Positions 6,182 to 51,158 of a stretch of 63,060 nt of DNA are shown here, one piece after another. Within the stretch, counting starts at the first letter, position 1; each line of letters opens with the position of its first letter. The notes below the pieces were generated by a model. That model was given only the letters and a program-made list of their open reading frames with translations, was not told where the DNA came from and searched no databases. A program made the translations under genes and the position numbers. Source of the DNA: Elusimicrobia bacterium CG1_02_37_114. Lineage in GTDB: Bacteria; Elusimicrobiota; Endomicrobiia; CG1-02-37-114. The DNA lies in assembly GCA_001871125.1 (NCBI GenBank), contig MNXB01000105.1, forward strand, positions 1 to 63,060, in the 5' to 3' direction.

Positions 6182-6183
6182 TA

Positions 6184-16814: not shown

Positions 16815-16827
16815 TTTTTAAAAGAAG

Positions 16828-17106: not shown

Positions 17107-17634
17107 GGATGAAATGATATGGCCAAGTAAGAAAGGGCATACAGTGGATCTCTTGGTGAAGGTCGTTGATGAAGGCCGTGGTAAACTGCGATAAGGTGCG
17201 GTGAGGAGCAAACATCCTGTGATCCGCACATTGCCGAATGGGGAAAACCGCCCCGATGCAAATCGGGGCACTATGATATGAATACATAGTATCATAGGAA
17301 TAACCCAGGGAAGTGAAACATCTCAGTACCTGGAGGAAAAGAAATCGAAAGAGATTCCCTTAGTAGTGGCGAGCGAACAGGGAAGAGCCTAAACTTGTCC
17401 CGATGCAAATCGGGATGAGGGTTGTAGGGTTTTAACAGTCCCGCTTCGGTGGGACAGGAAGTTACAAATGGAGTCTATAGTTGAATGGTCCTGGAATGGC
17501 CAACCATAGATGGTGAAAGTCCAGTAGATAAAATAGATTTCACTTCCTCGTTAGAATTCCTGAGTATCATTGAACACGTGAAATTCAGTGAGAATCCGCC
17601 CGGACCATCGGGCAAGGCTAAATACGAACCTTCA

Positions 17635-17665
<31 letters not shown>

Positions 17666-19242: not shown

Positions 19243-19303
19243 CTGCGTATTCGCACGAATAAGTGCGAATGAGTTACGCAGGACGGCGAGAAGGTGAGCC
19301 GGC
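19243..19303 (+). repeat. Element G, copy 2, inside the L1917 intron
   Basis: ctgcgta-ttcgcac-GAATAA-gtgcgaa-tgagt-tacgcag-gacggc-GAGAAGGTGA-gccggc. Confidence 0.8.
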
Positions 19304-19340
19304 GGGACAATCAGCAGGAAAGACCTGAAATGAGGGCTCC

Positions 19341-19835
19341 ATGCGAACAGAAACAGGCTATTACTTAGCAGGTTTTGCAGACGGAGAAGGAAGTTTTAAT
19401 ATTTCTTTCAGACCGAGGCAAGATTATAAGTTACCGTGGAAAATCTCTCTCTGCTTTAACATTTCCCAGAAGGATAAAGTTATTCTGTCGTTATTCAAAC
19501 GTTATTTGGTTTGTGGAACATTAAGGAGCAGACCCGATGGTGTTTGGTATTACGAAGTAAATAACTTCAATGCGATATGGGAAAAGGTAATACCTTTCTT
19601 TAAGAAATATAGATTCTTGTCCGCTAAGAAAAAACGTGACTTCTCAAAATTTTGCCAGATAGCAGAAATGGTAAAAAAAGGGGAGCATCTTAAAGAAGAT
19701 GGTATCAGAAGAATTGTTGAAATAAGACGAGAGATGAATGACGGTGGTAAACGCAAGTATAGCAATACGGAGATCCTAAGTAAATTTCAGGAATCCCCAG
19801 AGACTATACGCCAGATCCCGATAACTCGGGAATGA
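19341..19835 (+). CDS. Single-motif LAGLIDADG homing endonuclease (L1917 intron)
   Basis: YYLAGFADGEGSFNI, FNISQK, IPFFKKY. Confidence 0.93.
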   Translation: MRTETGYYLAGFADGEGSFNISFRPRQDYKLPWKISLCFNISQKDKVILSLFKRYLVCGTLRSRPDGVWYYEVNNFNAIWEKVIPFFKKYRFLSAKKKRDFSKFCQIAEMVKKGEHLKEDGIRRIVEIRREMNDGGKRKYSNTEILSKFQESPETIRQIPITRE

Positions 19836-19890
19836 TATAGTCCGGTCTCCGATGAAAATCGGAGTTAACATAAACGAACGGTCCTAAGGT

Positions 19891-20563
19891 TAGTTTAATG
19901 CTAGCCTGTTCCGGTAGTAATATCGGAAGTAATATTTAACTATATGCGGGGAACTCCCCAAAAAATGTTTGATACTAGTCTATTCATTTGAATGGGACAG
20001 TAAAAAATCAACATACATGAGGACAATCCGCAGGGAAGGCATATTATGGATAATAATATGAACCCTCAGAGACTACACGTTGAATATCCGAATTGCAACA
20101 GCTTGACTCCTGACTGGATTGTGGGATTCGTAGACGGGGAAGGTTGTTTTCACATAGGGATAAATAAGAATGACGAAGTTAAATCCGGGTACCAGGTTTT
20201 ACCCGAATTGACAGTCGTCCAACACAAACGAGACATTCAACTTCTTTATCGATTACGCACATTTATGAAATGTGGCGTGGTAAGAAGTAATCATGGAGAC
20301 CGTTTCTGTTGGCGTGTCAGATGTCTTAAAAACCTTGTGGAAATAATTCTTCCATTTTTTGAAAAGCATCCATTGAAATCAAAAAAAAATATTGAATTTC
20401 ACAGATTTGCAAAGGTGGTGCGAATGATGGAGAAAGATAAACACCTTACCCAGGAAGGATTCCAGAAGATTATTAAAATTGCGGAAGAGATGAACAGGCA
20501 AGAGCAAAGAGAAATTCGGATAAAGATATAGTCCACACTTCGATGAAAATCGAGGATTTTGTG
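19891..20563 (+). mobile_element. Group I intron at 23S position L1931
   Basis: Follows ctaaggt (U1931), ends in G before agcgaaattcc; Q aatccgcag, R tcagagactacacg, S aagatatagtcc. Confidence 0.93.
20046..20531 (+). CDS. Single-motif LAGLIDADG homing endonuclease (L1931 intron)
   Basis: WIVGFVDGEGCFHI, TVVQH, ILPFFEKHPL. Confidence 0.93.
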   Translation: MDNNMNPQRLHVEYPNCNSLTPDWIVGFVDGEGCFHIGINKNDEVKSGYQVLPELTVVQHKRDIQLLYRLRTFMKCGVVRSNHGDRFCWRVRCLKNLVEIILPFFEKHPLKSKKNIEFHRFAKVVRMMEKDKHLTQEGFQKIIKIAEEMNRQEQREIRIKI

Positions 20564-20610
<47 letters not shown>

Positions 20611-21053
20611 CGAAATGAGAACTGTCTCGGCGGCAAACTCGGCGAAATTGTGGTGTCCGTGAAGACGCGGACTACCTGCGGATAGACGAAAAGACCCCGT
20701 GGAGCTTTACTATAGCTTAATATTGAATTACGGGGTAGGATGCGTAGCATAGGTGGGAGGCTTTGATTCCCCGATTTTGGTCGGGGAGGAGCCGCCAGTG
20801 AAATACCACCCTTTCTGCTTTGTGGTTCTAATTCTAGTCCGTGAAACCGGACGGAAGACAGTGTTAGGTGGGTAGTTTGACTGGGGCGGTTACCTCCCAA
20901 AGAGTAACGGAGGCGTTCAAAGGTACCCTCATCCTGAATAAAAGTCAGGAGTTGAGTGCAAAGGCATAAGGGTGCTTGACTGCGAGTCCGACGGGACAAG
21001 CAGGTACGAAAGTAGGACTTAGTGATCCGGTGGTTGCGTATGGAAGTGCCATC

Positions 21054-21090
<37 letters not shown>

Positions 21091-21121
21091 TATCGAGCCC
21101 GAGAGTCCATATCGACGGCTC

Positions 21122-21162
<41 letters not shown>

Positions 21163-21657
21163 GAGCAGGTCCCAAGGGTTTGGCTGTTCGCCAATTAAAG
21201 CGGTACGTGAGCTGGGTTCAGTACGTCGTGAGACAGTACGGTCTCTATCTTCCGTAGGTGTTGGAAACTTGAGGGGAGCTGGCCTTAGTACGAGAGGACC
21301 AGGCTGGACAAGCCTCTGGTGTGCCTGCTATCGCGTCAGCGGTATTAGCAGGGTAGCCATTGCTTGGATAGAATAACCGCTGAAAGCATCTAAGCGGGAA
21401 GTCAACCCTAAAACAAGGTTTCCCTCCCGATGAAAGTCGGGACTGAAGGTCACCAGAAGACTACTGGTTTTATAGGTCGGGTGTGTAAGTCCAGTAATGG
21501 ATTGAGCTAACCGATACTAATCGACCGTGCGGCTTGGCCATATCTTTTGATCCAAAACATAAAAGTTTAAATGTACAGGACGTGGAAATTATTTTTGTAT
21601 TTCCTTGATTTTCCTGCCTTTTACTTTTTATAAAACAATCATTTGTTGAATTTAATT

Positions 21658-21922: not shown

Positions 21923-22675
21923 TTGTTTTGTATAATCTGCTGTTTCAGTGGTATCCTTTATAGTTCGGAAACCCTGGATACAGCAGAACAGATTTCAAAA
22001 GGGAAATTTCGCACAGTTGTTTATTACACACAGACGAAGGCAAAACCAACCTTTCAGATGGTGGATTTTTCAACGACAACCGGTTGGGGGATAAATAAGG
22101 TTGATGGAGATAGTTCCTTTGGAAACGTAGTCGTTAAACTTGTGTTAAATCCTTTTGATAAATTGAATTGGTGGGCAAGAGCGGGAATGGTATCTGATTA
22201 TAAATTAGGGGTCCCTTCAACCGATACTCCTAAAATTGAATACACAAATATCTCTTCTTATAATGGCTATACTATTGGAGCGGGAGCAAAATATCAGGTT
22301 TTTCCTCAGACAGATTTCAATTGCGGTATTTGTTTGGACTTTGGTGTTGTTTATACTAATTACATTTTTAATAGAAAATATCAGGAAAATATCGGATATT
22401 CTGATTTATCAGGTACTAAATTTGAAGATACTGAATTTCACGCAAAATTTAATCTCAGCAGGAAGATTCGCAAGACAGAGCCTTATGGCGGCGTTAGTAT
22501 TTACAGAAACTGGTATAAATTTGGAAGCAATTCAGGGACAAAAGACAATATAAATGTTTTCGCAGGTTTAAAAGTCAAACTGCGTCAGTTGAAATGGTTA
22601 ATGTGTGAGGCGAATCTGATTGGCGAAACCAGCCTGTCAGCTGGTTTTTGTATGGCTGTGGGTTCACACGAATAA
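21923..22675 (+). CDS. Putative outer-membrane beta-barrel protein (start uncertain)
   Basis: Hydrophobic signal-like N-terminus, alternating aromatic beta-strand pattern (YTIGAGAKY, EPYGGVSIY, LSAGF). Confidence 0.55.
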   Translation: MFCIICCFSGILYSSETLDTAEQISKGKFRTVVYYTQTKAKPTFQMVDFSTTTGWGINKVDGDSSFGNVVVKLVLNPFDKLNWWARAGMVSDYKLGVPSTDTPKIEYTNISSYNGYTIGAGAKYQVFPQTDFNCGICLDFGVVYTNYIFNRKYQENIGYSDLSGTKFEDTEFHAKFNLSRKIRKTEPYGGVSIYRNWYKFGSNSGTKDNINVFAGLKVKLRQLKWLMCEANLIGETSLSAGFCMAVGSHE

Positions 22676-22716
22676 GTGTGAACAAGATCCACAGGACGGC
22701 GAGTCGGTGAGCCGTC
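22656..22716 (+). repeat. Element G, copy 3; its GAATAA loop supplies the ORF stop codon
   Basis: ctgtgg-gttcacac-GAATAA-gtgtgaac-aagat-ccacag-gacggc-GAGTCGGTGA-gccgtc. Confidence 0.85.
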
Positions 22717-22726
22717 GGGGAAAGCT

Positions 22727-23260
22727 ATGGAACAAACAGCTCAAAGAAAATACAAGTATGACTATAACCAGATTGCTAAGGGATTTGAAAGTATATCGGG
22801 TGTGATATTTACAGAATATAGTGGACTAACAGTAGGCGAAATGACAGAACTACGCGGGAAATTAAAAAAGCAGGCAGCTAAATACATTGTTGTAAAGAAT
22901 AGAATCACATCAGCAGTTTTGAAGCAACTTAAAATAACTGATTTGAATGATTTATTTAAAGGGCCCACCGCATTACTTGTTATTAAAGAAAGTATTGAAG
23001 AACCAATAAAGATACTTGTAGATTTTTCAAAAGAGCATGAGAACCTGAAGATAAAAAAAGGACTTTTTTCAGGGAGAATATTTGAACACGATAAAATAGT
23101 TAGTATTGCAAAACTGCCGAATAGAAATGTTTTGATAGCGGAGCTGGCATCATTATTGAAAACAAATTTAGTGAATATTTTAACTGTCTTACAGGCGCCT
23201 ATGAGAGATTTTATTAATGTGTTAGAGCAGATAAAAGTAAAAAAAGAGAAAGGAGAGTGA
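22727..23260 (+). CDS. rplJ: 50S ribosomal protein L10
   Basis: [24 protein letters not shown]; located before rplL. Confidence 0.92.
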
Positions 23261-26700: not shown

Positions 26701-27469
26701 AGGTGTTGTAGGGAAAATACTTCCTGTTGAAGATATGCCTTACCTACCTGACGGCACTCCTGTTGATATGATTCTTTCACCGTTATCCGTTCCTTCCAGA
26801 ATGAACGTTGGCCAACTTATGGAAACCATGCTTGGTTGGGCAGCAAAGTTTTTAAACGTATCAATGATATGTCCTGTTTTTGAAAGTGCTACTGAAGAAG
26901 AAATTATAGAAAAAGTTCGTGAAGCAAAGACATTCCTGCGATCAAAAGAAGTTCCTGAGAAATACCTGCCTACGGATGACTGTCGCATAACACTTTATGA
27001 CGGACGAACCGGCGAACCATTTATGGAAAAAATCACAATTGGATATATGTATATGATGAAATTAGGACATTTAGTTGAGGACAAAATACATGCAAGGTCC
27101 ACGGGCCCGTATTCACTTATTACAAGACAACCTTTAGGCGGCAAAGCCCAGTTCGGAGGGCAGAGATTAGGCGAGATGGAGGTATGGGCATTAGAGGGAT
27201 ACGGGGCTGCACATACACTGCAGGAATTCCTTACCGTAAAAAGCGATGATGTTATAGGCAGGACCAGAGTTTATGAATCAATAATTAAGGGAGAAGTATT
27301 TTCTGAGACGGGAGTACCCGAGTCTTTTATAGTACTGGTAAGAGAACTGCAGGGATTAGGTTTGAATATAGAATTGTTACATAGTAGCAGAGGTGATAAA
27401 GAAATAAGAGAAGTTAAAGAATCCAGGCCAGAACCTGTAAAGGCAAGCGTCCCCATTAAAACATTATGA
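23708..27469 (+). CDS. rpoB: RNA polymerase beta subunit
   Basis: [45 protein letters not shown]. Confidence 0.99.
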
Positions 27470-30400
27470 TGAGATCAACTTTCATAAGTCTGAAGAAGAA
27501 AAAAGTTTCTTCGGAACTTAATTTTTTTGATTTTGATGCTATTCATATAACCATAGCATCACCCGAGAAGATGCATTCCTGGTCATACGGTGAAGTAAAA
27601 AAACCCGAAACAATTAATTACCGGACGTTTAAGCCTGAACGGGACGGACTTTTCTGTGAACGTATATTCGGACCTACCAGAGACTGGGAATGTAATTGCG
27701 GTAAATATAAATTTGTCAAACATAAGGGTGTAGTATGTGACCGCTGTGGCGTTGAAGTAACGGAATCAAAAGTCCGACGTGAACGCATGGGGCATATTGA
27801 ATTGACAATACCGATTGCACACATATGGTACTTAAGGAAGCAGCCTTCCAGAATTGGTATGATGTTAGAAATGCCGCTGATTGACATTGAGAGAGTGACG
27901 TACTATCTAAAGTATATAGTACTTGAAGATTTAAAAGACATTGATGGCGAGGTTATATTAAAAGAGAAAAGGCTGCTTAGTTTGGAAGAGCATTATAAGT
28001 ATAAAGAAGAGTACAAGGATAAATTGAAGACTGATATAGGTGCAAATGCAATCCGTAGATTACTTGAAAAAATAGATTTACAGAATGAATTGAAAAGAAT
28101 TGAAACACAGTTAAAGAAAACAGAATCGGATCTGGAAAGGAGTAAGTTAACACGCAGGGTGCGTCTCGTAGAAGGATTTATTGAATCAAAAACAAGACCT
28201 GAATGGATGATAATGACTGTCCTGCCCGTCATCCCACCGGACTTGCGTCCTTTAGTACCTCTTGAAGGCGGGAGGTTCGCTACAAGCGATCTCAACGACC
28301 TATACCGACGAATAATAAATCGCAACAACCGACTTAAACATATTCGCTCACTTAAAGCGCCTGAGATAATGATAAATAATGAAAAGCGCCTGCTCCAGGA
28401 AGCTGTTGATTCTTTGATAGAAAACGGGGCACGCTCTGCTCCTGTCACAGGTACGGGTGGCAGACCCCTTAAATCTTTTTCTGATATATTGAAGGGAAAA
28501 CAGGGACGATTCAGACAGAATCTCTTAGGTAAACGCGTGGATTATTCGGGTAGAAGCGTTATTGTTTCTGGACCCACTCTAAAACTGCACCAATGCGGTA
28601 TACCAAAGGAAATGGCTGTTGAACTTTTTAAGCCGTTCATTATACATGAACTTATAAAACGTGAAAACGTTACTCTTAAAGCTGCCAAGAGAATGTTTGA
28701 AAAAAACAGACCGGAAATATGGAACATACTTGAAGAAATTACAAAAAGACATCCTGTCCTGCTGAATCGTGCCCCGACATTGCATAGAATAGGTATCCAG
28801 GCTTTTGAACCGGTGCTTGTTGAAGGGAAATCAATACAACTGCATCCTTTAACATGCGCTGCCTTCAATGCAGATTTTGATGGCGACCAGATGGCTGTCC
28901 ATGTACCGCTTTCCCCGCAGGCACAACTTGAATGCCGGGTACTTATGTATGCACCTAACAATATACTTTCCCCTGCCAGTGGCAAACCTGTAGCAATTGC
29001 AAGTCAGGACATGGTTTTAGGTTGTGCATATCTTACAACTCCCAAGAAAGGCGAAAGAGGCGAAGGGAGAATATTTTCTTCACCCGAAGAAGTTGTCTCT
29101 GCCTATAATTTAAGCGATCTGGCATTACATTCAAAAATAAAAGTTCAAAACATAAACCAGCTGCGATTACCCGGTATGAAAAATACTGAATTATTTGATG
29201 TGGAGAAATGGGGAAATGATTATACCACCTGCGGCCGGGTAATATTTAATGAAATTCTAACCGAAGAATTGAAACGTCTTTACGATGAAGATGACCCCTA
29301 CGCAACATATAAGATAACCATAGACAAAAAACAATTAACAAAGCTTGTTGAATTGTGTTTCCATAAACTCGGTCAATCTAAAACCGTTGCTCTCTTAGAT
29401 GACCTGAAGAAGTTAGGTTATAAATATGCGACGATATCAGGAGTATCCATTTCTGTATCCGATATGCATATTCCAGAGGAAAAAGAGAAATTAGTAAAAA
29501 GAGCGAAGGAGCAGGTTGGAGAGATAGAGGCTCAATTTCAGCAGAGCTTGATTAGTGATACGGAAAGATACAATAAAATTATTGATATATGGACCCACGA
29601 AACAGATAGAATTGCTGATTTGATGTTTGAAAAAATGAAAAAAGAACAGGATCTGCCCTACGTTCCCGATAGAATTCGTTTCAATCCGGTATATATGATG
29701 GCAAATTCCGGAGCAAGAGGTAATCGGGATCAGGTCCGACAGCTTGCGGGTATGCGGGGTCTTATGGCCCGGCCACAGAGGAAAATGACGGGGCAGGTTG
29801 GAGAGATTATTGAATCACCGGTTATATCAAATTTCCGCGAGGGGTTATCCGTCCTGGAGTATTTTATATCCACCCACGGTGGACGCAAAGGTATTGCAGA
29901 TACTGCGCTTAAGACTTCCGATGCGGGTTATCTGACGAGAAGGCTTGTTGATGCAGCACATAATGTTGTTGTGACCGAAGAAGATTGTGGCACAATTAAT
30001 GGAATAAAAATCGGTGCCCTGCAGAGCGGGGAGGAAATGATTGAATCCTTCAAGGAACGTATAGTTGGCAGGGTTGCACTTGATAATATTGTGTGGGTTT
30101 TAACAACAGAAAACGGTGAACCCAAAGAGGAAATAATAGTAAAAGAAGATGAACTGATTACACCCGAAAAATCCGATAAAATTATCCAGGCAGGTATTGA
30201 GCAAATCCGTATAAGGTCAACCTTAACCTGTGAATCAAAGATTGGTGTATGCGCGAAATGTTATGGACTTGGTCTTGCAACAGGCAAACTTGTTGAAGTA
30301 GGTGAAGCAGTAGGAATAATCGGAGCACAGTCAATTGGTGAACCGGGGACCCAGCTCACACTCAGGACCTTTCATATAGGCGGTACAGCGAGCAGGGTTG

Positions 30401-31686
30401 TCCGTCAGTCACAAATTTTTTCCCAGAGACCATCAGTCGTTAAATTCCATAATTTAAAAGCGGTCCGGGATAAATCCGGCGACTATGTGGTAATGACACG
30501 CAATAGCGAAGTTATTTTCATGGAATCCGATACTAAACAGCGTGATTCATACAAACTTCCCTATGGAGCAAAACTAAAAGTAAGAAATAATGCTGAAGTC
30601 AAAGCCAATGAACTTGTTGTTGAGTGGGATCCATACTATCTGCCTATTGTCACCGAATATGAAGGCACGGTTAAATTTGAAGATATTATTGAAGGTAAAA
30701 CAATGCGGAAGGAAAAAAGTAAAGTTATGGGATTGGAAGAAAGAATGATGATTGAACATCGTGGTGAAAAACTCCGTCCCCAGGTTGTCATAGTTAATAA
30801 AGAAGGTAAACGGATTGCAATGTATCCTCTTCCTGTAGATACTCTCCTTTCAGTGGATGAAGGAGATAAATTACATGCGGGCGATACCCTGGCAAGGATT
30901 CCTCAGGAAGTCCTTAAGAGCAAAGACATAACGGGCGGATTACCGCGGGTGGCAGAACTATTTGAAGCCCGACACCCGCACAATGCAGCTATTATATCAG
31001 AAATTGACGGTGTTATTAAACTTGGCATCACATCAAAGGGTTCACCTAAAGTAACCGTAATGGATGAACAATCCGGCATGACAAGAGAATATATTATTCC
31101 GACAGGACGGCATTTAGTTGTCTATGAAGGAGATAAAGTAGGGGCGGGTGAACCGCTGACAGACGGAGCTATAGACCCACACGATATTCTCAAAGTGAGG
31201 GGTGCCAAGGAAGTACAGGAGTTTCTTGTTAATGAAATCCAGCAGGTTTACCGACTCCAGGGTGTTATAATAAATGACAAACATATAGAAATAATAGTTC
31301 GGCAGATGCTCTCAAATGTCCGAATCATAAATCCCGGCGGCAGCAAGTTTCTGTATGGTGAAATCATACCCAAGAGATGTTATGACGAAGAAAGAAGGAA
31401 AACAGAACAGTTAAGAAAAAAAATTATGAAGGATAAAGGACGTGAAGAAGCAAATAAAATTAAAGCACCTGAAATCCAGCCGGTATTGCTTGGAATCACC
31501 AAGGCCTCGCTCTCCAGCGAATCATTTATTTCAGCTGCGAGTTTTCAGGAGACAACACGCATATTAACCGAAGCCGCCACTATGGGACAGACAGACTATT
31601 TAGAGGGATTAAAAGAAAATGTTATAATCGGGCATTTAATACCAGCAGGTACAGGAATCAAACAAATAAGGGGGGACGCTACTTGA
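27466..31686 (+). CDS. rpoC: RNA polymerase beta' subunit
   Basis: [37 protein letters not shown]. Confidence 0.99.
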
Positions 31687-31782
31687 ATTTTGCTACTTTT
31701 TCACAAATGAAATGAATTCAAGATAATCGTCCGAATTCGGACGCTACAGTAGTAAAAAGTAGCAAAATTCAAGTAGCGTCCC
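31673..31782. mobile_element. MITE-like element D, copy 1, with perfect 29-bp TIRs
   Basis: gggacgctacttgaattttgctacttttt ... aaaaagtagcaaaattcaagtagcgtccc. Confidence 0.85.
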
Positions 31783-31796
31783 TATTAAGAGACAAT

Positions 31797-32183
31797 ATGC
31801 CAACAGTAAATCAACTTATAAGGTCTATTCGACAGAAAATCAGAGGAAAAACTAAATCACCCGCACTTACGGGATGTCCTCAGCGCAGAGGTGTGTGTAC
31901 CCGTGTCTACACGACTACACCAAAGAAACCTAACTCTGCACTTCGTAAGGTTGCACGGGTGAAATTGACTACGGGCATTGAAGTTACGGCATATATTCCT
32001 GGTGTAGGACATAATTTACAGGAACATTCAATTGTGTTGGTTCGCGGTGGCAGAATAAAAGATTTGCCGGGTGTGAGGTATCATATTATAAGGGGTAGTT
32101 TAGATGCTACGGGTGTTGAGGGAAGAAAGCAGGGACGTTCAAAATACGGTGCAAAACTGGTTAAAACAGCAGCACCAGCTTAA
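31797..32183 (+). CDS. rpsL: 30S ribosomal protein S12
   Basis: [25 protein letters not shown]. Confidence 0.99.
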
Positions 32184-32253
32184 CTCCAGGGTAAAATCCT
32201 GAAGGATAAAACCCTAAAGGGTAAATTCCAGGAATTAAGGGTTTACCCTTTTA
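32181..32253 (-). repeat. Family B copy in reverse orientation
   Basis: Reverse complement of the 4780 modules. Confidence 0.85.
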
Positions 32254-32274
32254 CTTCAAGAAAGGTAAGGTAAA

Positions 32275-32754
32275 ATGGCAAGAAAACCATTAAGACCAAG
32301 ACAGCGAAGAGAAAAAACCGCACCTGATTATAAATATAACAATATATCGGTGAACAGGTTCATCAATAAAATTAACTACAAAGGCAAAAAAACTGTTGCT
32401 GAAAAAATTTTATATGGTGCATTTGATATAATCAGGGAGAAGACCAAGCAAGAACCGTTAGAAGTTTTTACTAAGGCGATGGAAAACGCAAGACCGCTTG
32501 TCGTTGTGAAAGCTCGACGGATTGGCGGAGCTACTTATCAGGTGCCTGTGGAAATGTCCCGAACACGGGGTGAAACAATAGGAATGAGATGGATTATTAA
32601 TTCCGCACGGGAAAGAAAAGGTCTTCCAATGAAAATCAAACTTGCCGAGGAACTGATGTCAGCCTACAAAAAAGAAGGTTCGGCAGTAAAGAAAAAGGAA
32701 GATACTCACAAAATGGCTGATGCAAACAAGTCCTTTGCACATTACAGGTGGTAA
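32275..32754 (+). CDS. rpsG: 30S ribosomal protein S7
   Basis: RRIGGATYQVPVE, KKKEDTHKMADANKSFAHYRW. Confidence 0.99.
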   Translation: MARKPLRPRQRREKTAPDYKYNNISVNRFINKINYKGKKTVAEKILYGAFDIIREKTKQEPLEVFTKAMENARPLVVVKARRIGGATYQVPVEMSRTRGETIGMRWIINSARERKGLPMKIKLAEELMSAYKKEGSAVKKKEDTHKMADANKSFAHYRW

Positions 32755-32841
32755 ACGGTAGTCCCGAGTAATTCGGGACATGTCACCGTTTACCCCCAGC
32801 GATTAGTTTTCAAACTTGTCCTGTTTGAAAACTGCGAGGGG
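32752..32841 (+). repeat. Bipartite element H, copy 2
   Basis: taaacggt..accgttta-cccccagcgattag-[hairpin]-ctgcgagggg. Confidence 0.7.
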
Positions 32842-32854
32842 TTAGTTAAAGTTT

Positions 32855-34933
32855 ATGACAGAAAAAATTTTATTAGATAAAATTCGTAATATAGGTTTTG
32901 TAGCGCATATTGATGCTGGTAAAACCACTACGACCGAGCGTGTCCTTTTCTATACAGGACGTATACGCAAACTCGGAGAAGTGGATGAAGGTACTACTGT
33001 GATGGATTGGATGGCTCAGGAGAGAGAAAGAGGCATCACCATAACTTCCGCTGCCACCTCCTGCGTATGGGAAGGATATGACATAAATATAATTGATACG
33101 CCCGGTCATGTGGATTTTACCGTTGAGGTTGAAAGAGCACTGCGCGTGCTTGACGGGTGTGTCGTGATTCTTGATGGAGTTGGCGGGGTTGAACCACAAT
33201 CAGAAACCGTATGGCATCAGGCAGACAGGTATAAAGTCCCGAGAATGATTTTTGTAAATAAGATGGATAGAGTAGGTGCGGATTTTAATATGGTTATTGA
33301 ACATATTAAAAAGCGTCTATATGCTGTTCCTTTAGTTTTGCAAATACCCTGTTTCAGGCAGGACGAATTCGCTGGAATGATTGACATAGTCCAGATGAAA
33401 CCCTACCTGTGGCAGGACAAAGAGGGGAAAGAGTATACTGTATGTGGATTTCAAGGTGAGGAAGAAAAAGAAGCAAAAAAGTATCATGAAAAACTTATGG
33501 AGCAGTTATCGGAAACCGATGACCATTTTCTGGATAAATTTGTTCACCACAGGGAGATAACTATTGAGGAAATAAAAAAAATTATACGCAAGGCAACCGT
33601 ATCAGGCAAATTTTTTCCTGTTTTCTGCGGTTCATCATTGAAAAACAAAGGCGTTCAGCTTTTACTAAACGGTATTATTGATTATTTACCTTCGCCGGAG
33701 GACGTTTCCAAGATAAAAAAGTCCGAACATTTTTCTGCACTTGCGTTTAAAATCCAGGTTGATTCTTATGTGGGTAAATTGACATATATCCGTGTGTATT
33801 CAGGAAAAATAAGCCCCGGTATGAGCGTTTATAATTCACGAACATCTAAAACTGAACGTATAATGAAGATATTAAAAATGCATGCCAATCATCGCGAGGA
33901 AATACAGGAAACATCTACGGGAGATATCGTCGGTCTTATTGGATTGAAGGAAACAAGGACGGGCGATACATTATGCGAAAAGAAACATCCGGTGGTTCTG
34001 GAATCAATACACATACCTGAACCCGTAGTATGGATTTCAATTGAGCCGAAAACAAAAAAAGACCAGGAAAAACTTTCGTACGCACTGAGCAGGATGCGTG
34101 AGGAAGACCCGACCTTCAGAGTTAAAATTGATGAAGAAACGGCTCAGATGATAATATCCGGTATGGGCGAATTACATTTAGAAATCATAATTGACAGGAT
34201 GCATCGCGAGTTCGGGGTGGAGGCTCATATCGGCAGGCCTCAGGTAGCTTATCGTGAAGCAATAACGAAACATGTTGCAGTAGAGGGAAAATACATAAAA
34301 CAATCAGGCGGTCATGGACAGTATGGCCATGTAGAACTTGAAATTGAACCTATAAATGAGGGGTTTGAGTTTATTAATGAAGTAAAAAGAGGAGAAATAC
34401 CGAGAGAATATATCCCGGCAATAGAAAAGGGAGCAAAAGAAGCAGTTGAGTCGGGTCCTATTTCGGGATATCCGTTAATCAATCTACGGATAAGACTTAT
34501 TAGCGGTTCATATCATGAAGTAGATTCTTCTGATATAGCATTCAAACTTGCCACCATACAAGCCGTGAGAGATGGCACAAGGAAGGCTGATGCGGTATTA
34601 CTAGAACCTATAATGAAAATTGAAATTACTGTGTATGAAGAGTCCCTGGGTGATGTTTTATCTGACATAAATGCACGACGGGGCAAGGTTTTATCCTTAG
34701 AGTCAAGGGAGATACCTCTAACAGATGGCGGACACTTAAGCGACCAGTCAAGTGACAGGCATAACAGGCTGCACTATGTTAAAGGAATGGTGCCCCTGGC
34801 TGAGATGTTTGGTTATACAACCTCACTTCGCTCACTAACCCAGGGCCGTGCAACTTATACAATGGAATTATCACATTATGATAAAGTACCAAGAACTGTT
34901 GCTGAAAAATTATTACCAGCAGTACTTGTGTAA
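32855..34933 (+). CDS. fusA: Elongation factor G
   Basis: [34 protein letters not shown]; located in the str operon. Confidence 0.97.
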
Positions 34934-34947
34934 TGGAGGTAAAAAAT

Positions 34948-36150
34948 ATGGCAGCGAAAGAAAAATTTGATAGGACTAAACCACATTTAAACATCGGGAC
35001 AATAGGACATGTTGATCACGGTAAGACCACACTGACAGCAGCAATCACAACCTGTTTATCCAAGGCGAACCTGGCAGAGGCGAAAGGGATATGGGACATA
35101 GACAATGCCCCTGAGGAGAAAGAGCGGGGCGTAACAATCAACATAGCGCATGTGGAATACCAGACAGAGAAGAGGCACTATGCACACATAGACTGTCCGG
35201 GACATGCGGATTATATCAAGAACATGATAACGGGAACAGCCCAGATGGACGGTGCAGTATTAGTGGTATCAGCGTCTGATGGACCAATGCCTCAGACCCG
35301 GGAACATATACTTCTGGCAAGACAGGTGAACGTGCCTTCAATGGTAGTATTTATGAACAAGACAGACATGGTGACGGATAAGGAGTTATTAGATTTGGTG
35401 GAGATGGAAGTCAGGGATTTATTGAAGAAGTATGAATTTCCCGGTGACAAGACGCCAATAGTTAAGGGCAGTGCGCTAAAGGCTCTTGAGTGCGGGTGCG
35501 GTAAGAAAGAGTGCAATAACTGTAAGTGTATATGGGAATTGATGAGTGCAATAGACGAATATTTCCCGATGCCCAAGAGGGAAACAGACAAGCCGTTTTT
35601 GATGTCAGTGGAGGATGTATTTACAATCACAGGTAGAGGGACGGTAGCGACAGGCAGGGTAGATAGAGGGAAAATCAACACAGGTGATGCGGTAGAGATA
35701 GTAGGGATACAGGAGACGAGGAAGAGTGTGGCGACATCACTGGAAATGTTCAGGAAGATATTAGATTCAACGGAAGCAGGGGATAACATAGGGATATTGC
35801 TGAGGGGAATAGAGAAGGACCAGATAGAGCGGGGACAGGTAATAGCAAAGCCCGGCAGTATAACTCCGCATAAGAAGTTCAAGGCACAGGTATATGTGTT
35901 AAAGAAGGAAGAGGGCGGCAGACACACACCGTTTTTCACGGGGTACAGGCCGCAGTTTTATTTAAGGACCTGCGATGTTACGGGGAATATAAAGTTACCC
36001 CAGGGAGTAGAGATGGTGATGCCCGGGGATAATATAGAGATGGAGGCAGAGTTGCTCACGCCGATAGCTTTGGAGAAACAGTTAAGGTTTGCGATAAGAG
36101 AAGGCGGACACACGGTGGGTGCGGGTGTGGTTACGGAGATATTAGAATAA
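34948..36150 (+). CDS. tuf: Elongation factor Tu
   Basis: [17 protein letters not shown]; SD ggaggt before ATG 34948. Confidence 0.99.
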
Positions 36151-36151
36151 T

Positions 36152-36472
36152 ATGGCTACTCAAACAACACAACAAAAAATAAGAATAAGATTACGTGGAT
36201 ACGAGCATAAAATGCTTGATAACTCTATTGCTAAAATAGTTGATACAGTAAAACGTACAGGTGCGGTCATTTCCGGACCCGTGTTGTTGCCGACAAGAAT
36301 CAAAAAGTATACTGTTTTGCGTTCGCCTCATGTTGACAAAAAGTCACGGGAACAGTTTGAAATGCGTATTCATAAAAGGTTGATAGAAATAATTGATCCT
36401 ACACCTAGAACGCTTGAAGAATTGATGAAACTTGAATTGCCTGCAGGTGTTGATGTGGAGATAAAGTTATGA
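36152..36472 (+). CDS. rpsJ: 30S ribosomal protein S10
   Basis: [23 protein letters not shown]. Confidence 0.99.
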
Positions 36473-37197
36473 TAAAAGGACTTCTGGGCCAAGTAGGCCT
36501 ACTCGGTAAAAAACTTGGTATGACACAAATTTTTGGTACTACGGGAAACGTTATACCTGTGACTTTAATACATGCAGGTCCCTGTCCTATCGTAGAGGTA
36601 AAAACGAAGGAAAACGATGGCTATAATGCTATTCAGTTAGCTTATGGCGAATGCAGAGAGAAGAGTGTTAATAAATCGCTAGCAGGGCATTTCAAAAAAG
36701 CTAATGTCCAACCTTACAAATGGTTGAAGGAATTTAGAGTAGATAAACCGGAAGAATATAAGTGTGGTCAGGAAATAAAAGTTGATATATTTGCCGATGG
36801 TGATTTTGTTGATATTACGGGAGTAACTAAAGGCAAGGGATTTCAGGGTGTTATGAAAAGGCATGGGTTCCACGGCGGTCCCAAAACACACGGTCAATCT
36901 AATAGACAGCGCTCGCCGGGAGCCATTGGCTCACAGGGTCCCCAGCGTGTATTGAAAGGCACACGTATGGGAGGACATATGGGTTGTGAGTGGAAAACCA
37001 TACAGAAACTAACAGTAGTTAAATCTGACCAGGAGAAGAATTTGTTGCTTGTTAAAGGTTCTGTTCCCGGTGTAGTTAATGGGTTAGTTATTATAAATAA
37101 GACGATAAAAGCAGTAAAATCTAAAGTGGAAGTTAAGTTACAGAAAAAAGTGGCTGGTAAGGGTAAAGCACCAGCTGGAATTCCAAAAAAGAAATGA
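36469..37197 (+). CDS. rplC: 50S ribosomal protein L3
   Basis: [25 protein letters not shown]. Confidence 0.98.
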
Positions 37198-37877
37198 TGA
37201 ATGTAACTGTTTATGATATAGACGGAAAGAAATTAGAAGAATTAACTTTACCTGCAGTATTTTCTGACGTAAAGGTTTCTGTGCCATTGTTACATGAAGT
37301 GGTAACTGCATACCTGGCTAATCAGCGTGTGGGTACAGCCTGTGCGAAAACAAGAGCAGAGGTTGCTGGTGGTGGTGCCAAACCGTGGCGGCAGAAAGGC
37401 ACAGGGAGAGCACGTGCCGGTTCAATAAGATCACCTCTGTGGCGTAAAGGAGGGGTGGTATTCGGGCCAAGACCGAAGTCATACCGTCAGAATTTACCTA
37501 AAAGGAAAACTCGTAAGGCACTGCTAATGGCACTCTATAGCAAGATTGTCAATAATGAAATAATTGTAACTAAAGATTTCTCGCTCCCGGAACCCAAAAC
37601 GAAAAAAATTAAACAAATACTTGATAATCTCACAAATGAGATAGTCCTGCGGACAAATAAGAATGGAAATAGTCCCCAGCATCCCGATTCAATTCATCGG
37701 GATGGAAAAATATTACTGGTGGTAAAAAGCATTGAGAAGAATCTAAAGTTAGCAGCAAGAAACCTGAAATATGTCAGTTTGACTCCTGTAAATTCACTTA
37801 ATGCTTATGATGTATTGAATGCGAAGATAATAATTTTTACTCAGGAAGCATTTAACGAACTAAACTTAAAAAAATGA
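37194..37877 (+). CDS. rplD: 50S ribosomal protein L4 with internal insertion
   Basis: KPWRQKGTGRARAGS, LAARNL. Confidence 0.98.
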   Translation: MMNVTVYDIDGKKLEELTLPAVFSDVKVSVPLLHEVVTAYLANQRVGTACAKTRAEVAGGGAKPWRQKGTGRARAGSIRSPLWRKGGVVFGPRPKSYRQNLPKRKTRKALLMALYSKIVNNEIIVTKDFSLPEPKTKKIKQILDNLTNEIVLRTNKNGNSPQHPDSIHRDGKILLVVKSIEKNLKLAARNLKYVSLTPVNSLNAYDVLNAKIIIFTQEAFNELNLKK

Positions 37878-38164
37878 ACCCGTATAGTATAATAAAAAAA
37901 TCTCTTGTCACTGAACAGACGAGACAACTAAAAGAAAAAGAAAATAAATATGTGTTTGTAGTTGACAAAAAAGCGACCAAAAATCAAATAAGGCATGCTA
38001 TAAAACAACTTTTTGATATTGATGTAGAAAAAATTACGACAATGATTGTTCATGGCAAACTGCGCAGACTTGGTAAATACGCCGGGTACCGTCCCGATTG
38101 GAAAAAAGCCATTGTTAAATTGAAAAAGGGACAGGAAATAAAGGTTATTGAAGAAACCAGGTAA
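37874..38164 (+). CDS. rplW: 50S ribosomal protein L23
   Basis: [23 protein letters not shown]. Confidence 0.96.
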
Positions 38165-38166
38165 TC

Positions 38167-39000
38167 ATGGGAATAAAAACATATAGACCGTATACGCCGA
38201 CACGAAGGTTCATCACTATAGAAGATTTTTCTGACATAACAAAAACCGAGCCTGAAAAAAGTCTTACAGTTAGACTTTTTAAAAAAAGTGGACGCAATAA
38301 CACGGGACGTGTTACGATACCGCATCGCGGAGGCGGTCATAAACGGTTTTACAGGATAATAGATTTTAAGCGGGATAAGATAAATATTAAAGGTAAGGTT
38401 ACCGGAATAGAATATGACCCCAACAGGTCAAGCAGAATCGCTCTTATAGAATATGAAGATGGTGAAAAACGTTATATCATTCAACCCGAAGGACTCAAAT
38501 TAGGGGATGAAATAATATCGGGTCCCAATGCTGAAATAAAATCAGGTAATGCATTACCTTTAGAAAATATCCCTGTCGGGACGACAATACATAATATAGA
38601 ACTTATTCCGGGAGGGGGCGGGAAGTTTACCCGTTCAGCGGGTTCCTGGGCACAACTTATGGCTAAGGAAGGTAATTTATCTACAGTGCGTATGCCTTCG
38701 GGCGAGGCGAGATTCGTTCCAATAAAATGTATGGCAACTATCGGACAGGTTTCTAACTTAGACCATGAAAATGTGAGTTTAGGTTCAGCGGGTAGAAAGA
38801 GACATTTAGGGTTTAAGCCAATTGTCCGTGGAACAGCAATGAATGCTATTGACCATCCCCATGGGGGGGGACGGGGCAAGTCCAAAGGAAATAACCAGCC
38901 CAGGTCCTACAGTAATGTGCCGGCAAAAGGATATAAGACACGGCACAAAAGGAATAAGTGGGATTGGATGATAGTTCAAAGGCGGGGTGGAAATTTATGA
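38167..39000 (+). CDS. rplB: 50S ribosomal protein L2
   Basis: [24 protein letters not shown]. Confidence 0.99.
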
Positions 39001-39284
39001 GCAGGTCAAGTAAAAAGGGACCTTATATAGACGAAAAATTATATAGAAAAATACAACAACTCAGTCAAACCGGTGAGAAACGTGTCCTTAAAACCTGGGC
39101 GAGGGCATGTACCATAATACCTGAGTTTGTCGGTCATACTATTTCCGTACACAATGGAAAAAAGTTTATACCGGTATACATAACAGAACAGATGGTTGGC
39201 CACAAATTAGGTGAGTTTTCGCCGACAAGATTCTTTAGAGGACATGGTGAGGCACACACAAAGGGAGTAACGGAGTTAACTTAA
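38997..39284 (+). CDS. rpsS: 30S ribosomal protein S19
   Basis: [21 protein letters not shown]. Confidence 0.98.
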
Positions 39285-39619
39285 TGGAAGCAAGAGCAGT
39301 ATCACGGTTTGTAAGATATTCTCCGCGCAAGGTAGGTCTGGTGTTGGACCTGGTGCGGAATAAATCTGTCCCGGAGGCATTTCAGATTTTGCGGTTTGTC
39401 CCGAAATTAGTGACAGGATTTATTGGAAAAACATTGAAAAGTGCTGCTGCTAATGCGGGCAGGATGAAGAAACCCGGAGAATTATTTATTAAAACGTGTT
39501 ATGTCAATCAAGGTCCAAGTATAAAACGATGGCGTGCTCGTGCGTATGGACGAGCCGCACCTTATAGACACAGAACATGCCATTTGACAATAGTCGTCAG
39601 CGATCAAAGGGGAGTGTGA
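39284..39619 (+). CDS. rplV: 50S ribosomal protein L22
   Basis: SPRKVGLV, LKSAAANA, RARAYGRA. Confidence 0.97.
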   Translation: MEARAVSRFVRYSPRKVGLVLDLVRNKSVPEAFQILRFVPKLVTGFIGKTLKSAAANAGRMKKPGELFIKTCYVNQGPSIKRWRARAYGRAAPYRHRTCHLTIVVSDQRGV

Positions 39620-39622
39620 CCG

Positions 39623-40393
39623 ATGGGTCAGAAAGTTCCACCAAAGGCAAATAGATTGGGTTATATAGAAGATTGGACCTCAAGATGGTTCAACCTGAGA
39701 GAAATGCCCGAACTTATTGAAGAAGACCTTCATATAAGGCGATACGTGAAACAAAAACTGCGTTTTGCAGGAATGTCAAAATTAGTTATAGAACGTGCCG
39801 GGAAATACCTGAGATTGGCTATATATACTGCTCGTCCCGGGATAGTGATTGGCAGAGGCGGTCAGGAGATTGAGAACCTGCGTCAAGAGATAGAATCTAT
39901 GGTGGGTAAAAAGACTTTTGTAAATGTTATGGAAATAAAGGAACCCACGCTTGATGCTCAGCTTGTTGCTGATGCATTAGCAATGCAGATTGAGAAAAAT
40001 GTAAATTATCGCAGGGCTATTAAACGCGCCATAGGAAGTTCAATGAACAGCGGGGCCCTGGGTATAAAAATTATGGTTTCAGGCAGACTTGGAGGCGTTG
40101 ATATTGCCCGCACAGAATGGCTTAAAGAAGGAAGGATACCGCTTCATACATTTCGTGCGGATATAGATTACGGTTTTTCTGAAGCGATGATAAAAAAAGG
40201 TAAGATTGGTATTAAGGTGTGGCTGTTTAAAAAAGAATTTTTCCGTAAAACAGATAAAGACCTGATTGAAGAAGCACGACTTGTGGATAAAGAGACAATA
40301 GAATCCCTGCCTGAACCCGAGAGTGGACGGGTGAAAGAGATTATACCTGAAATTAAAACAGAGGAAACAGACGTAGTTGAAGAGAAAAAATAA
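39623..40393 (+). CDS. rpsC: 30S ribosomal protein S3
   Basis: [30 protein letters not shown]. Confidence 0.98.
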
Positions 40394-40806
40394 TGTTAAT
40401 GCCAAAACGGGTCAAATATCGTAAATCGCAAAGAGGCAAAATCAAGGGTTTCTCAACCAAGGGTTCAAAAATAGTTTTTGGTGAATATGGTTTGAAAGCA
40501 CTTGAACCTGCCTGGATTACTGCACGGCAGATTGAAGCAGCACGACTTACTCTGGCGAGAAGTCTAAAACATGGTGGTAAAATATGGATAAGGATATTTC
40601 CCGATAAATCCGTAACCAAAAAACCTGCGGAAACACGCATGGGTAAAGGTAAAGGTGACCCTGACCATTGGGTAAGCGTTGTAAGACCGGGTCGTGTGCT
40701 GATTGAACTTGAGGGCATTAACGTCGAAGAAGCCAAAAAATCATTGAAATTAGCTGCCGATAAAATGCCTATAAAAACTAAAATTATCTCAAGGATGCAT
40801 GCATGA
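40393..40806 (+). CDS. rplP: 50S ribosomal protein L16
   Basis: [20 protein letters not shown]. Confidence 0.99.
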
Positions 40807-40997
40807 AGACAAAAAACTGGCAGGAGATGAAAAACTTCACCGAACAGGAGTTGGCAATGCAGTTAGAAACAAAAGAGGAAAAACTGTTTAAGATTAAGTT
40901 GCAGCATGAACATGCAACACTTAAAAACCCGCTGGAAATCAGAAGTTTAAGACGTGATATCGCACGTATAAAAACTCTTTTGAATAAAAAAATATGA
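40803..40997 (+). CDS. rpmC: 50S ribosomal protein L29
   Basis: [19 protein letters not shown]. Confidence 0.96.
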
Positions 40998-41230
40998 AAA
41001 AGAAAACTCGTATAGGAACCGTTGTTTCAGATAAGATGAATAAGACACGTGTTGTGCTGGTTGAACGCACGGTCCGTCATCCTCTTTATAAGAAAGTCAT
41101 TCATAAGACTAAGAAGTATTATGTCCACGACGAAGAAAACATTTCCCATACCGGTGATAAAGTTAAAATAATAGAGACAAGACCGCTGTCTAAACTTAAA
41201 CGATGGAGAATAGAAGGGGACGCTACTTGA
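40994..41230 (+). CDS. rpsQ: 30S ribosomal protein S17 (C-terminus replaced by element D)
   Basis: [26 protein letters not shown]. Confidence 0.97.
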
Positions 41231-41340
41231 ATTTTGCTACTTTTTCACAAATGAAATTTTGTTTTGTATACACGAACTATGAATATTTATTAATGAATTT
41301 TTACTAGTATAGAAAGTAGCAAAATTCAAGTAGCGTCCCC
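41216..41340. mobile_element. MITE-like element D, copy 2
   Basis: Same TIRs as 31673-31782 (one internal mismatch in the right TIR) with a different interior. Confidence 0.85.
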
Positions 41341-41348
41341 CAAATAAA

Positions 41349-41717
41349 ATGATACAGGAAAGAACAATATTAACCGTTGCAGATAATACAGGCGCCAAAA
41401 AGCTTATGTGCATACGTGTCTCGGGTAGTACCGGTAAAAGGTATGCGCATCTCGGAGATGTCATAGTAGGTACGGTAAAAGAATCATTACCGACAGCAGC
41501 TGTTAAAAAAAGTGAAGTAGTAAAGGCAGTTATTATAAGGACGGCCAAAGAACATCGGCGCAAAGATGGCTCTTATATAAGATTTGATGGAAATGCATGC
41601 GTAATAATAGACAATGATGGTAATCCCCGCGGTACCAGAATATTTGGTCCTGTCGCAAGAGAATTGCGAGAGAGAGATTTTGTTAAGATTGTTTCTTTAG
41701 CTCCCGAGGTTATATAG
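41349..41717 (+). CDS. rplN: 50S ribosomal protein L14
   Basis: [21 protein letters not shown]. Confidence 0.99.
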
Positions 41718-47809: not shown

Positions 47810-47825
47810 ATATAAGCATAAAGTA

Positions 47826-47874
47826 TAAAAGGGTAAACCCTTAATTCCTGGAATTAATCCTTCAGGATTTTACT
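47826..47874 (+). repeat. Family B copy, short form
   Basis: taaaagggtaaacccttaattcctggaattaatccttcaggattttact. Confidence 0.85.
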
Positions 47875-47883
47875 TAACTAAAT

Positions 47884-49074: not shown

Positions 49075-49701
49075 GTGGGACGTTATACAGGCCCTTTATG
49101 TAAATTATGTCGCAGGGAAAAGACGAAACTTTTCCTTAAAGGAGAGAAATGCGATAAAAATTGTGTTATTGACCGCATCAAACAAAAGGGCAAGTCAGGA
49201 CAATCCAGACAAAAGAGAATGGTAAAGTTAAGCGAATACGCTAAACGGCTGCATGAAAAACAAAAGATGAAACACATGGCAGGGCTTACAGAAGAACAAT
49301 TTCGTAATTATTATAGACAGGCATTAAAAATGCCAGGCATGACAGGCGAACAATTGCTTTTGTTGGTTGAAACAAGGCTGGATAGTGTTTTACATAGATT
49401 GGGTTTTGCACCGTCAAAACGTTTTGCACGGCAATTAGTAACACACAGGCATATAACTGTAAATGACCGTATTATGAAATTTGCAGGTTATCGGGTAAAA
49501 CCCGGTGATAAAATAAAACTTCGCGAAAGTGTTCATGAGAATCCGGTCATTAAAAAATCTTTGGAGAAAGACATTGAGTCACCTTCCTGGTTATCTGTTG
49601 ACAAAACGAATTTTGCTGCTGAAGTTTTATCTGTTCCATCACGGAGTGAAATATCCTATCCGATAGATGAAACACTTATAGTAGAATTATATTCAAGATA
49701 A
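49075..49701 (+). CDS. rpsD: 30S ribosomal protein S4 (Cys-containing form)
   Basis: CKLCRRE..KC..C, ETRLDSV, ARQLVTH. Confidence 0.98.
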   Translation: MGRYTGPLCKLCRREKTKLFLKGEKCDKNCVIDRIKQKGKSGQSRQKRMVKLSEYAKRLHEKQKMKHMAGLTEEQFRNYYRQALKMPGMTGEQLLLLVETRLDSVLHRLGFAPSKRFARQLVTHRHITVNDRIMKFAGYRVKPGDKIKLRESVHENPVIKKSLEKDIESPSWLSVDKTNFAAEVLSVPSRSEISYPIDETLIVELYSR

Positions 49702-49703
49702 TG

Positions 49704-49737
49704 ATTAAAAGCCTAAAGGCTTAATTCCATAATTTTA
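49704..49737 (+). repeat. Family C copy
   Basis: Identical to 6184-6217. Confidence 0.9.
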
Positions 49738-49761
49738 CGGTAGGAGGAGAATACATCCATT

Positions 49762-51068: not shown

Positions 51069-51158
51069 TCCCCTATATTCCCCCTTTACCAAAAGTAGGT
51101 TCTTTAGGAACCAAAAGTAGGTTCCGTAGGAATAAAAGGGGGAAATAATAAGGGGGAA
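51069..51158. repeat. Composite repeat: imperfect outer IR around two tandem 22-bp family E units
   Basis: ccaaaagtaggttctttaggaa and ccaaaagtaggttccgtaggaa; related units at 1723-1743 and 10533-10553. Confidence 0.75.

Follow-up and report, generated by a model that had tools for sequence, protein, structure and literature searches.

Repeat-written ends of rpoC and rpsQ in an Elusimicrobia-like genome: probable terminal-inverted-repeat doublets of a TIRYT/TIRtron system

How do two core genes, one for the beta-prime subunit of RNA polymerase and the other for ribosomal protein S17, come to end in the same four residues and the same stop codon? The question is raised by a 63,060-nucleotide stretch, positions 1 to 63,060 of contig MNXB01000105.1 (assembly GCA_001871125.1, Elusimicrobia bacterium CG1_02_37_114), hereafter the window, in which rpoC and rpsQ each run into a short element bounded by terminal inverted repeats (TIRs) and stop inside its left arm. 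A sequence-only reading, made without database searches, had described the two as copies of one element resembling a miniature inverted-repeat transposable element (MITE), which truncates both proteins. The analysis presented here indicates that they are very probably non-autonomous TIR doublets of a TIRYT/TIRtron system, since their TIRs are shared with a unit that encodes a TIRYT-type transposase.

The anatomy of the two elements follows from a 27-nt core, GGGACGCTACTTGAATTTTGCTACTTT, which occurs exactly four times in the window (GC content about 0.40), at 31673 and 41217 on the plus strand and at 31782 and 41339 on the minus strand, the expectation in shuffled sequence being zero. These occurrences form two inverted pairs, whose arms extend to 29 nt, are 100% complementary and are identical in all four instances. 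Copy 1 is a 110/111-bp doublet of the form GGGG...CCC on the plus strand at 31672-31782 (the start falling at 31672 or 31673), with its left TIR at 31672-31701 and its right TIR at 31754-31782. Copy 2, of the form GGGG...CCCC, spans 123/125 bp on the same strand at 41216-41340 (from 41216 or 41217 to 41339 or 41340), with TIRs at 41216-41245 and 41313-41340. The interiors are unlike in both sequence and length, so that the earlier description of two elements with common TIRs and differing interiors stands. As RNA, both copies are predicted to fold into long hairpins (-58.3 kcal/mol, z = -10.3 for copy 1; -56.3 kcal/mol, z = -10.5 for copy 2), with the stop codon of the upstream gene sitting in the stem of each. 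Neither element has a match in Rfam at the gathering thresholds.

Repeats can cause misjoins in metagenomes, and an assembly artefact or chimera at these sites was accordingly weighed as an explanation; its probability is vanishingly small. The junctions are the same in at least six independent assemblies drawn from three archives, 92 blocks of public assemblies are indexed with the exact S17 protein, and the 250-nt region surrounding copy 2 is identical in six independent contigs (ENA, NCBI and JGI), which excludes the misassembly that the sequence-only reading had allowed for. One of the public-assembly contigs, L001, has copy 1 as well, another S17 contig, L003, belongs to GCA_002781045.1, and both element junctions preserve gene order and reading frames.

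The translations bear out the way in which the elements had been said to terminate the genes. The open reading frame (ORF) list and translation place rpoC (1406 aa; an identical gene on L001 has Pfam RNA_pol_Rpb1 domains) at 27466-31686 on the plus strand, and its last four codons and TGA, at 31672-31686, lie within the left TIR of copy 1. Likewise, rpsQ (78 aa, from the ORF list and an alignment with 23 relatives) occupies 40994-41230 on the plus strand, with its last four codons and TGA at 41216-41230 within the left TIR of copy 2. On the downstream side, rpsL (S12; 31797-32183, plus strand) starts 14 nt past copy 1 and rplN (L14; 41349-41717, plus strand) starts 8 nt past copy 2. The left TIR opens with the 15 nt GGG GAC GCT ACT TGA, whereby both RpoC and S17 end in GDAT followed directly by the stop, an ending that is missing in the aligned relatives of both proteins. 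Two further genes on contigs introduced below end in the same way, namely uvrB (contig L015; ending ...AAVYRDILRSVGDAT, with Pfam UvrB_inter, Helicase_C, UvrB and UVR) and a gene for a 468-aa GATase1-like protein (contig L018). No other protein with a GDAT end was found among 360 retrieved proteins.

The extent of the change to the proteins can be gauged from in-silico excision, defined as removal of GGGG...CCC(C) with no target duplication assumed. Excising 31672-31782 yields an rpoC that ends ...GTGIKQIRY, followed by 8 nt and then the ATG of S12; the inferred remnant of this native end, TAT TAA (tyrosine and stop), now lies as non-coding sequence at 31783-31788 on the plus strand, with GAGACAAT and the start codon of S12 coming next. 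Excising copy 2 yields an rpsQ that ends ...RWRIEQIK with a TGA overlapping the L14 ATG, the corresponding remnant being CAA ATA AAA TGA (QIK and stop) at 41341-41352 on the plus strand. At uvrB the same operation gives ...RSVRTL and an ATGA overlap with the next gene. The restored stops are thus 1-3 codons downstream for rpoC, rpsQ and uvrB, and therefore the insertions lie 1-3 codons ahead of the native stops. The closest relatives have no element at either junction; in the closest of them (L007, S17 94% identical) the empty S17-L14 junction reads AAATGATACAGGAAAG, with an ATGA overlap. Of greater note than the altered protein ends is the effect on the RNA, which now has very stable hairpins with the stop codon in the stem; the S17 insertion has also put 119 nt between the stop and the L14 start downstream of it, and the ancestral stop/start overlap of the two genes is thereby lost. 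Strain variants are also seen at the uvrB site (L013 456-470 versus L015 2893-2900), where a 7-bp tandem duplication, CAGAACG CAGAACG, abuts the right end of the element; it sits in the would-be last uvrB codons and fits the non-coding status of that remnant.

The claim that two core proteins are truncated does not hold up against these reconstructions. The RpoC tails of 110 relatives extend 3-53 aa past the conserved PAGTG and are unconserved, those of the nearest relatives ending LKQIVS, LRQAE and LNK. Relatives of S17, of which the nearest named ones are metagenome-assembled genomes (MAGs) of Endomicrobiia/Elusimicrobia, end KRWR[LI][LV]E[IV][IV]xK in the alignment of 23. Unconserved RpoC tails, together with the restored IKQIRY and RWRIEQIK ends, mean that there is no meaningful truncation. 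RpoC would have lost about one non-conserved residue and gained four, while in S17 about three residues would have been swapped, QIK for GDAT, with RWRIE kept. Hence the suggestion that the final strand of S17 after KRWR had been replaced holds only for its tip; to judge from the restored reading frame, the last beta-strand would be altered there and not removed.

A scan of metagenome contigs with an exact 20-mer of the TIR recovered 17 stretches, which resolve into five further sites; a scan of genome contigs with the 22-mer TIR core gave no matches. Three of the sites are doublets: a 128-bp copy at site A (L012, L014 and L020), a 75-bp copy at site B (L013, L015 and L021) and a 130-bp copy at site C (L017 9969-10100, with L023 and L026), whose interior is a sibling of that of copy 2. 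Site D is a 1.1-kb unit (L018 1452-2550; also L016 with L024, and L025), and site E a solo TIR (L019 3905, L022 and L027 2001). A further solo TIR, on the minus strand of L021 at about 8585, is diverged (AGCAATTTTCAAGTAGCGTCCCC) and escaped the exact-match scan; the family therefore exceeds the seven sites counted. The dispersed TIRs thus comprise the two doublets of the window, together with three doublets and at least two solo TIRs in compositionally matching contigs. In all five doublets the 32-nt left end and the 25-nt right end are identical while the interiors have diverged, which gives the elements a polarity.

Short intergenic palindromes (GGGTAAACCC and others) proved uninformative as a marker of a common genome, and tetranucleotide correlation was used instead, along with a shared family of GTAG-tagged repetitive extragenic palindromes (REPs, described below). 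The TIR-bearing contigs correlate with the window at r = 0.84-0.95, as compared with 0.77-0.78 for another Elusimicrobia lineage. Composition, the identical TIRs and the shared REPs together point to the same genome for these contigs and the window.

The 1.1-kb unit is the transposase-bearing partner with the same TIRs that the sequence-only reading had proposed to look for. Its arms, at L018 1448-1496 and 2506-2554, include a 34-nt perfect TIR core, and the encoded protein, of 322 aa, terminates at a stop codon inside the right TIR. The protein matches Pfam Y1_Tnp (IS200-like; 46.6 bits against a cutoff of 23) and Bac_DnaA_C (43.6 bits against 31.5), and in NCBIfam the top-scoring model is 'REP-associated tyrosine transposase' (RAYT; REP_Tyr_transpos), at 62 bits and under the cutoff of 80. 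The HUH histidines H60 and H62 and the tyrosine Y119 of RYIHLNP are invariant in 30 aligned homologues, and in its C-terminal domain the family profile hits structures of DnaA domain IV with E = 1e-13. More than 7,700 homologues share the two-domain architecture. Many TIRYT homologues lie on contigs of just 1.0-1.3 kb, close to the length of the element itself, which suggests a multi-copy state that breaks assemblies in other organisms.

These features correspond closely to a described class. RAYT-like genes flanked by long TIRs have been named TIRYTs or TIRtrons, with the tip motif GGGGWSAS, and genomes that carry them also contain moderately abundant, dispersed TIR copies that are single or dimeric (Di Nocera, De Gregorio & Rocco 2013, PMC3733652). 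Most TIRYTs fall in TnpA_REP subclass 2.1 and have Bac_DnaA_C or helix-turn-helix (HTH) tails, the C-terminal HTH types of that subclass being Bac_DnaA_C, HTH_23 or HTH_28 (Quentin et al. 2018, PMC6006769). The system described here shares with this class the RAYT-like Y1 HUH transposase, the long TIRs starting with GGGG, the C-terminal Bac_DnaA_C HTH, the scattered single and dimeric TIR copies and the overlap of the 3' end of the transposase ORF with a TIR. It differs from published TIRYTs in its Elusimicrobia-like host, known from a groundwater MAG, in that a GTAG-REP is both carried by the element and dispersed in the genome, and in that essential genes have their coding ends inside the doublets.

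Comparable parallels and differences emerge for other repeat families. Like the doublets of the REPIN-RAYT system (Bertels & Rainey 2011, PMC3116915), those found here are non-autonomous inverted doublets with a less conserved spacer that form long hairpins, are positioned at gene 3' ends, show no target duplication and are presumably mobilised by a Y1 enzyme. The REPIN repeat, however, is a short GTAG palindrome with copies up to hundreds (PMC3116915), whereas the arms here are non-palindromic TIRs of 29-32 nt and not REPs, with about five doublets by the exact-match scan. REPIN-RAYT systems are further characterised by a RAYT that is single-copy and vertically inherited. IS200/IS605 elements, which lack TIRs, have subterminal hairpins and insert 3' of a fixed tetra- or pentanucleotide, were considered and rejected as a home for the system, given the perfect TIRs, the absence of conserved flank nucleotides and a subterminal hairpin plus CTAC on one side only.

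The label MITE-like survives only in part. The elements do constitute a non-autonomous inverted-repeat family, and their perfect 29-nt TIRs, small size and lack of coding capacity would fit a conventional MITE derived from a DDE transposase, for instance of the IS630/Tc1 or IS5 type. Further, they resemble the Correia/NEMIS, ERIC and RUP MITEs, which are likewise 100-150 bp TIR elements co-transcribed with their neighbours as long RNA hairpins. However, those are DDE-derived and come with target duplications (TA for Correia), and neither applies here: analysis of the flanks of six sites found no target-site duplication, no target consensus and no palindromic target, and the single coding unit bracketed by these TIRs encodes Y1_Tnp, making a DDE origin extremely unlikely. 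A 10-nt inverted complementarity flanks the L018 unit and none of the other sites.

The inner hairpin of copy 1 adds a second layer to the relationship with REPs. Within this copy, at 31726-31747 on the minus strand, lies a GTAG-tagged REP unit, 5'-GTAG-CGTCCGAATTCGGACG-AT, whose counterpart in the autonomous unit is a hairpin with CTAC just upstream of the transposase start (L018 1491-1545). The 22-nt unit recurs in full context in five more copies (L012 2763 and 9290; L014 5378 and 14167; L024 3851), and variants in related contigs keep GTAG-CGTCC...GGACG with a changed loop. The TIR tip ends GTAGCGTCCCC, and GTAGCGTCC is common to the TIR tip and the REP; this sharing marks the system as a REPtron/TIRtron hybrid. 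The hairpin had been reported to recur at 14142 and, degenerate, in the 23S gene. Indeed, the GTCCGAATTCGGAC palindrome that forms the REP core has a perfect repeat at 14142 and a copy with a single mismatch at 18407 in the 23S gene, but the AT...CTAC context of the REP is found only in the copy within element 1. At the first of these positions, the AGTCCGAATTCGGACT palindrome (14141-14156, no strand assigned), downstream of a gene ending at 14096, corresponds to the REP core without the GTAG/CTAC tag and, on its sequence, may be a degenerate REP relative; the 18407 match was rejected as a family member, the REP context being absent. The window also has four plus-strand copies of a second GTAG-REP family, AGTAG-GTTCYTTAGGAAC, at 1726-1743, 10536-10553, 51094-51111 and 51116-51133, the last two in tandem upstream of a gene at 51163; in related contigs the unit of this family adjoins GTAGCGTCCAGTTTTAACC.

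Loci from other phyla place the repeat-written ends in a broader setting. Eighty homologue loci came from a scan of named genomes; with three earlier loci and L018 they provided 41 callable TIR pairs, most of which begin GGGGTCAG, a full match to GGGGWSAS. The nearest relative, in an Elusimicrobiota MAG (L029; protein 44% identical), has a TIR starting GGGACGCTACTTC, with the tip as in the window elements. In a Nitrospirales MAG (L043), PurE ends ...KKIGVRS and stops inside the TIR through GGT GTC AGG TCT TGA, in the same register as in the window, and a TPR protein (L090) and an HsdR protein (L117) likewise stop inside a TIR. At about 18 of 82 TIR ends, an ORF of 100 codons or more that runs towards the TIR stops between -20 and +25 nt of the TIR boundary, as a raw count with no null model. 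Further, GTAG REP ends frequently supply flanking ORFs with a stop codon (PMC3733652). Such prior reports for GTAG REPs, taken with the TIRYT stops in other phyla, make repeat-written C-termini less unusual than they had been considered in the sequence-only reading. GTAG REPs, intragenic REPs and the Rickettsia RPEs (PMC3733652) are also alike in that the repeat is translated within real proteins, including those of DNA-repair genes such as uvrB. In those cases, by contrast, either the TAG of the tag serves as the stop codon or translation continues in frame through the repeat, whereas here a TGA 12 nt inside the TIR leaves a constant GDAT tail.

Why, then, do the genes share one reading frame into the element? 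Of the three frames of the TIR one stops immediately, whereas the other two continue for 13-33 codons, and all four gene-overlapping insertions are in the stop-giving frame (a chance of about 1/81). Additionally, all five doublets lie between -9 and +10 nt of a native stop, the two outside rpoC, rpsQ and uvrB beginning 6 and 10 nt past the native stops of a glnA-like and a response-regulator-like gene (labels read from the translations without a domain search). We propose that a Y1 HUH transposase with a DNA-binding tail resembling DnaA domain IV, its own gene bracketed by TIRs of 30-34 nt, would mobilise the doublets in trans, that these probably move as single-stranded hairpins, and that they would insert without target duplication. 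In a compact genome, where genes overlap or are a few bases apart, the survivable sites would be the last codons of a gene or the tiny spacer behind it. Insertion in the stop-giving frame would turn 1-3 native residues into GDAT with an immediate stop, while insertion in the other frames would add 13-33 residues. Purifying selection would then leave genes capped with GDAT, rpoC and rpsQ in the window and, in other parts of the population, uvrB and the GATase1-like gene. Mobility of the elements is suggested by sequence comparison, and the simplest reading of the shared frame is purifying selection in a spacer-poor genome; we infer that selection, and not targeting, accounts for it.

The same pattern admits a bolder account, in which the in-frame stop of the TIR has evolved as a self-terminating end and insertion is actively targeted near stop codons, as a means of living in spacer-poor genomes. 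Beyond the four-of-four frame and the stop-proximal doublets, this would be in keeping with the many TIRs of other phyla in which positions 13-15 remain TGA and in register with the leading GGG or GGT (GGTGTCAGGTCTTGA, read as GVRS and stop), and some neighbouring genes use that TGA. However, the conserved TTGA(C/A)A resembles a -35-type or protein-binding motif; its register shifts in many homologues (GGGGTCAGGCTTGACA), and it is absent from the TIR of L029 (...CTTCAA). The sample is also very small, the pattern is what purifying selection would produce by itself, and no target consensus is seen in the flanks, all of which renders the evolved self-terminating end very unlikely. The wider proposition that TIRYT repeats act as gene-end adaptors, which through the conserved in-register TGA and a stop-proximal preference colonise spacerless operons in many phyla, even the core rpoBC and ribosomal ones, rewriting C-termini (to GDAT or GVRS) and uncoupling overlapped genes, is likewise distinctly improbable.

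An account of another kind holds that the hairpins are, or have become, host RNA elements with roles in processing, stability, attenuation or the resetting of translational coupling, with their mobile origin secondary. It is compatible with their being TIRYT doublets, and it draws some strength from the location of both copies, exactly at the rpoC|rpsL and rpsQ|rplN operon junctions. In the textbook layout of E. coli, rpoBC|str and S10|spc are classical transcription-unit junctions. Additionally, the very stable hairpins, whose folding energies are -56 to -58 kcal/mol (z about -10), are in principle long enough for RNase III, the S17 insertion broke the ATGA overlap with L14, and the TIRs are perfectly conserved while the interiors drift. 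Against this, the same doublets sit at unrelated junctions (uvrB, the glnA-like and the response-regulator-like genes) and the same TIRs around the transposase gene, the closest relatives do without the element at the rpoC and rpsQ junctions, and there is no T-run past either hairpin, a terminator scan returning no intrinsic terminator for the long stems. A promoter scan of the elements gave weak, uninformative matches only, and to read TTGAAT in the TIR as a -35 box is a guess. A primary role as host RNA elements is hence possible but unlikely.

Assignment of the window elements to a TIRYT/TIRtron system remains the favoured reading, and several points weigh against it. The transposase-bearing unit lies outside the window and is tied to it by composition, TIRs and REPs. 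Its family sequence profile failed to reach the solved structure of the E. coli RAYT, the sole matches in PDB being to the DnaA-like domain. The TIR tip, GGGGACGC, matches GGGGWSAS at seven of eight positions. No within-species polymorphism of empty and occupied sites was found, and in-silico excision of the autonomous unit restores no nearby stop for the GATase1-like gene upstream of it. Lastly, the four one-frame insertions could reflect targeting, which in these data is inseparable from selection.

Other features of the window are recorded here for completeness. A two-hairpin motif of about 77 nt with a conserved ACGAATAAGT loop is present in three copies (11103-11181, 19236-19312 and 22649-22725), with compensatory changes in 12 of 20 predicted pairs; one copy ends at the start codon of rplJ (L10), one lies in an insertion of the 23S gene just upstream of a LAGLIDADG ORF, and one is inside a GlgE-like ORF. 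The motif has no Rfam match, 22560-22760 and 19150-19900 having been searched directly and 11103-11181 by the whole-window gathering scan only. The 23S rRNA gene itself (17121-21541) exceeds the Rfam model by about 1.5 kb and contains two LAGLIDADG homing-endonuclease ORFs (19341-19835 and 20046-20531), along with group I intron matches at 19881-20555 (69 bits) and 19635-19864 (36 bits, under gathering). Intergenic arrays of the short hairpin repeats GGGTAAACCC, GCCTAAAGGC, TCCTTCAGGA and AATTCCAGGAATT, each following TAAAA, resemble BIME-like clusters and occur at 4772-4876, 6178-6217, 14963-15044, 16764-16821, 32191-32263, 47818-47882, 49698-49752 and 56913-56990, among them the spacer between S12 and S7 and a region upstream of 16S.

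The system is not new in kind, TIRYTs and TIRtrons having been described already, and the GDAT caps, though neat, are a fairly ordinary outcome where mobile DNA meets a tightly packed genome. What the locus provides is a worked example of a poorly studied class; the lineage is Elusimicrobia-like and uncultivated, and the organism is abundant enough to have been assembled repeatedly. We know of no reported biochemistry for the TIRYT class, with its Y1 HUH and DnaA-like HTH domains; the autonomous unit, the doublets, the GTAG-REP family and the reconstructable insertion sites without target duplication are well suited as substrates for in-vitro assays of cleavage and strand transfer. For annotation, constant odd C-terminal tails can flag repeats. 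More broadly, mobile hairpins can occupy the terminal codons of rpoC, rpsQ and uvrB and break stop/start coupling within the ribosomal-protein cluster, which bears on the tolerance of mobile DNA in compact genomes.

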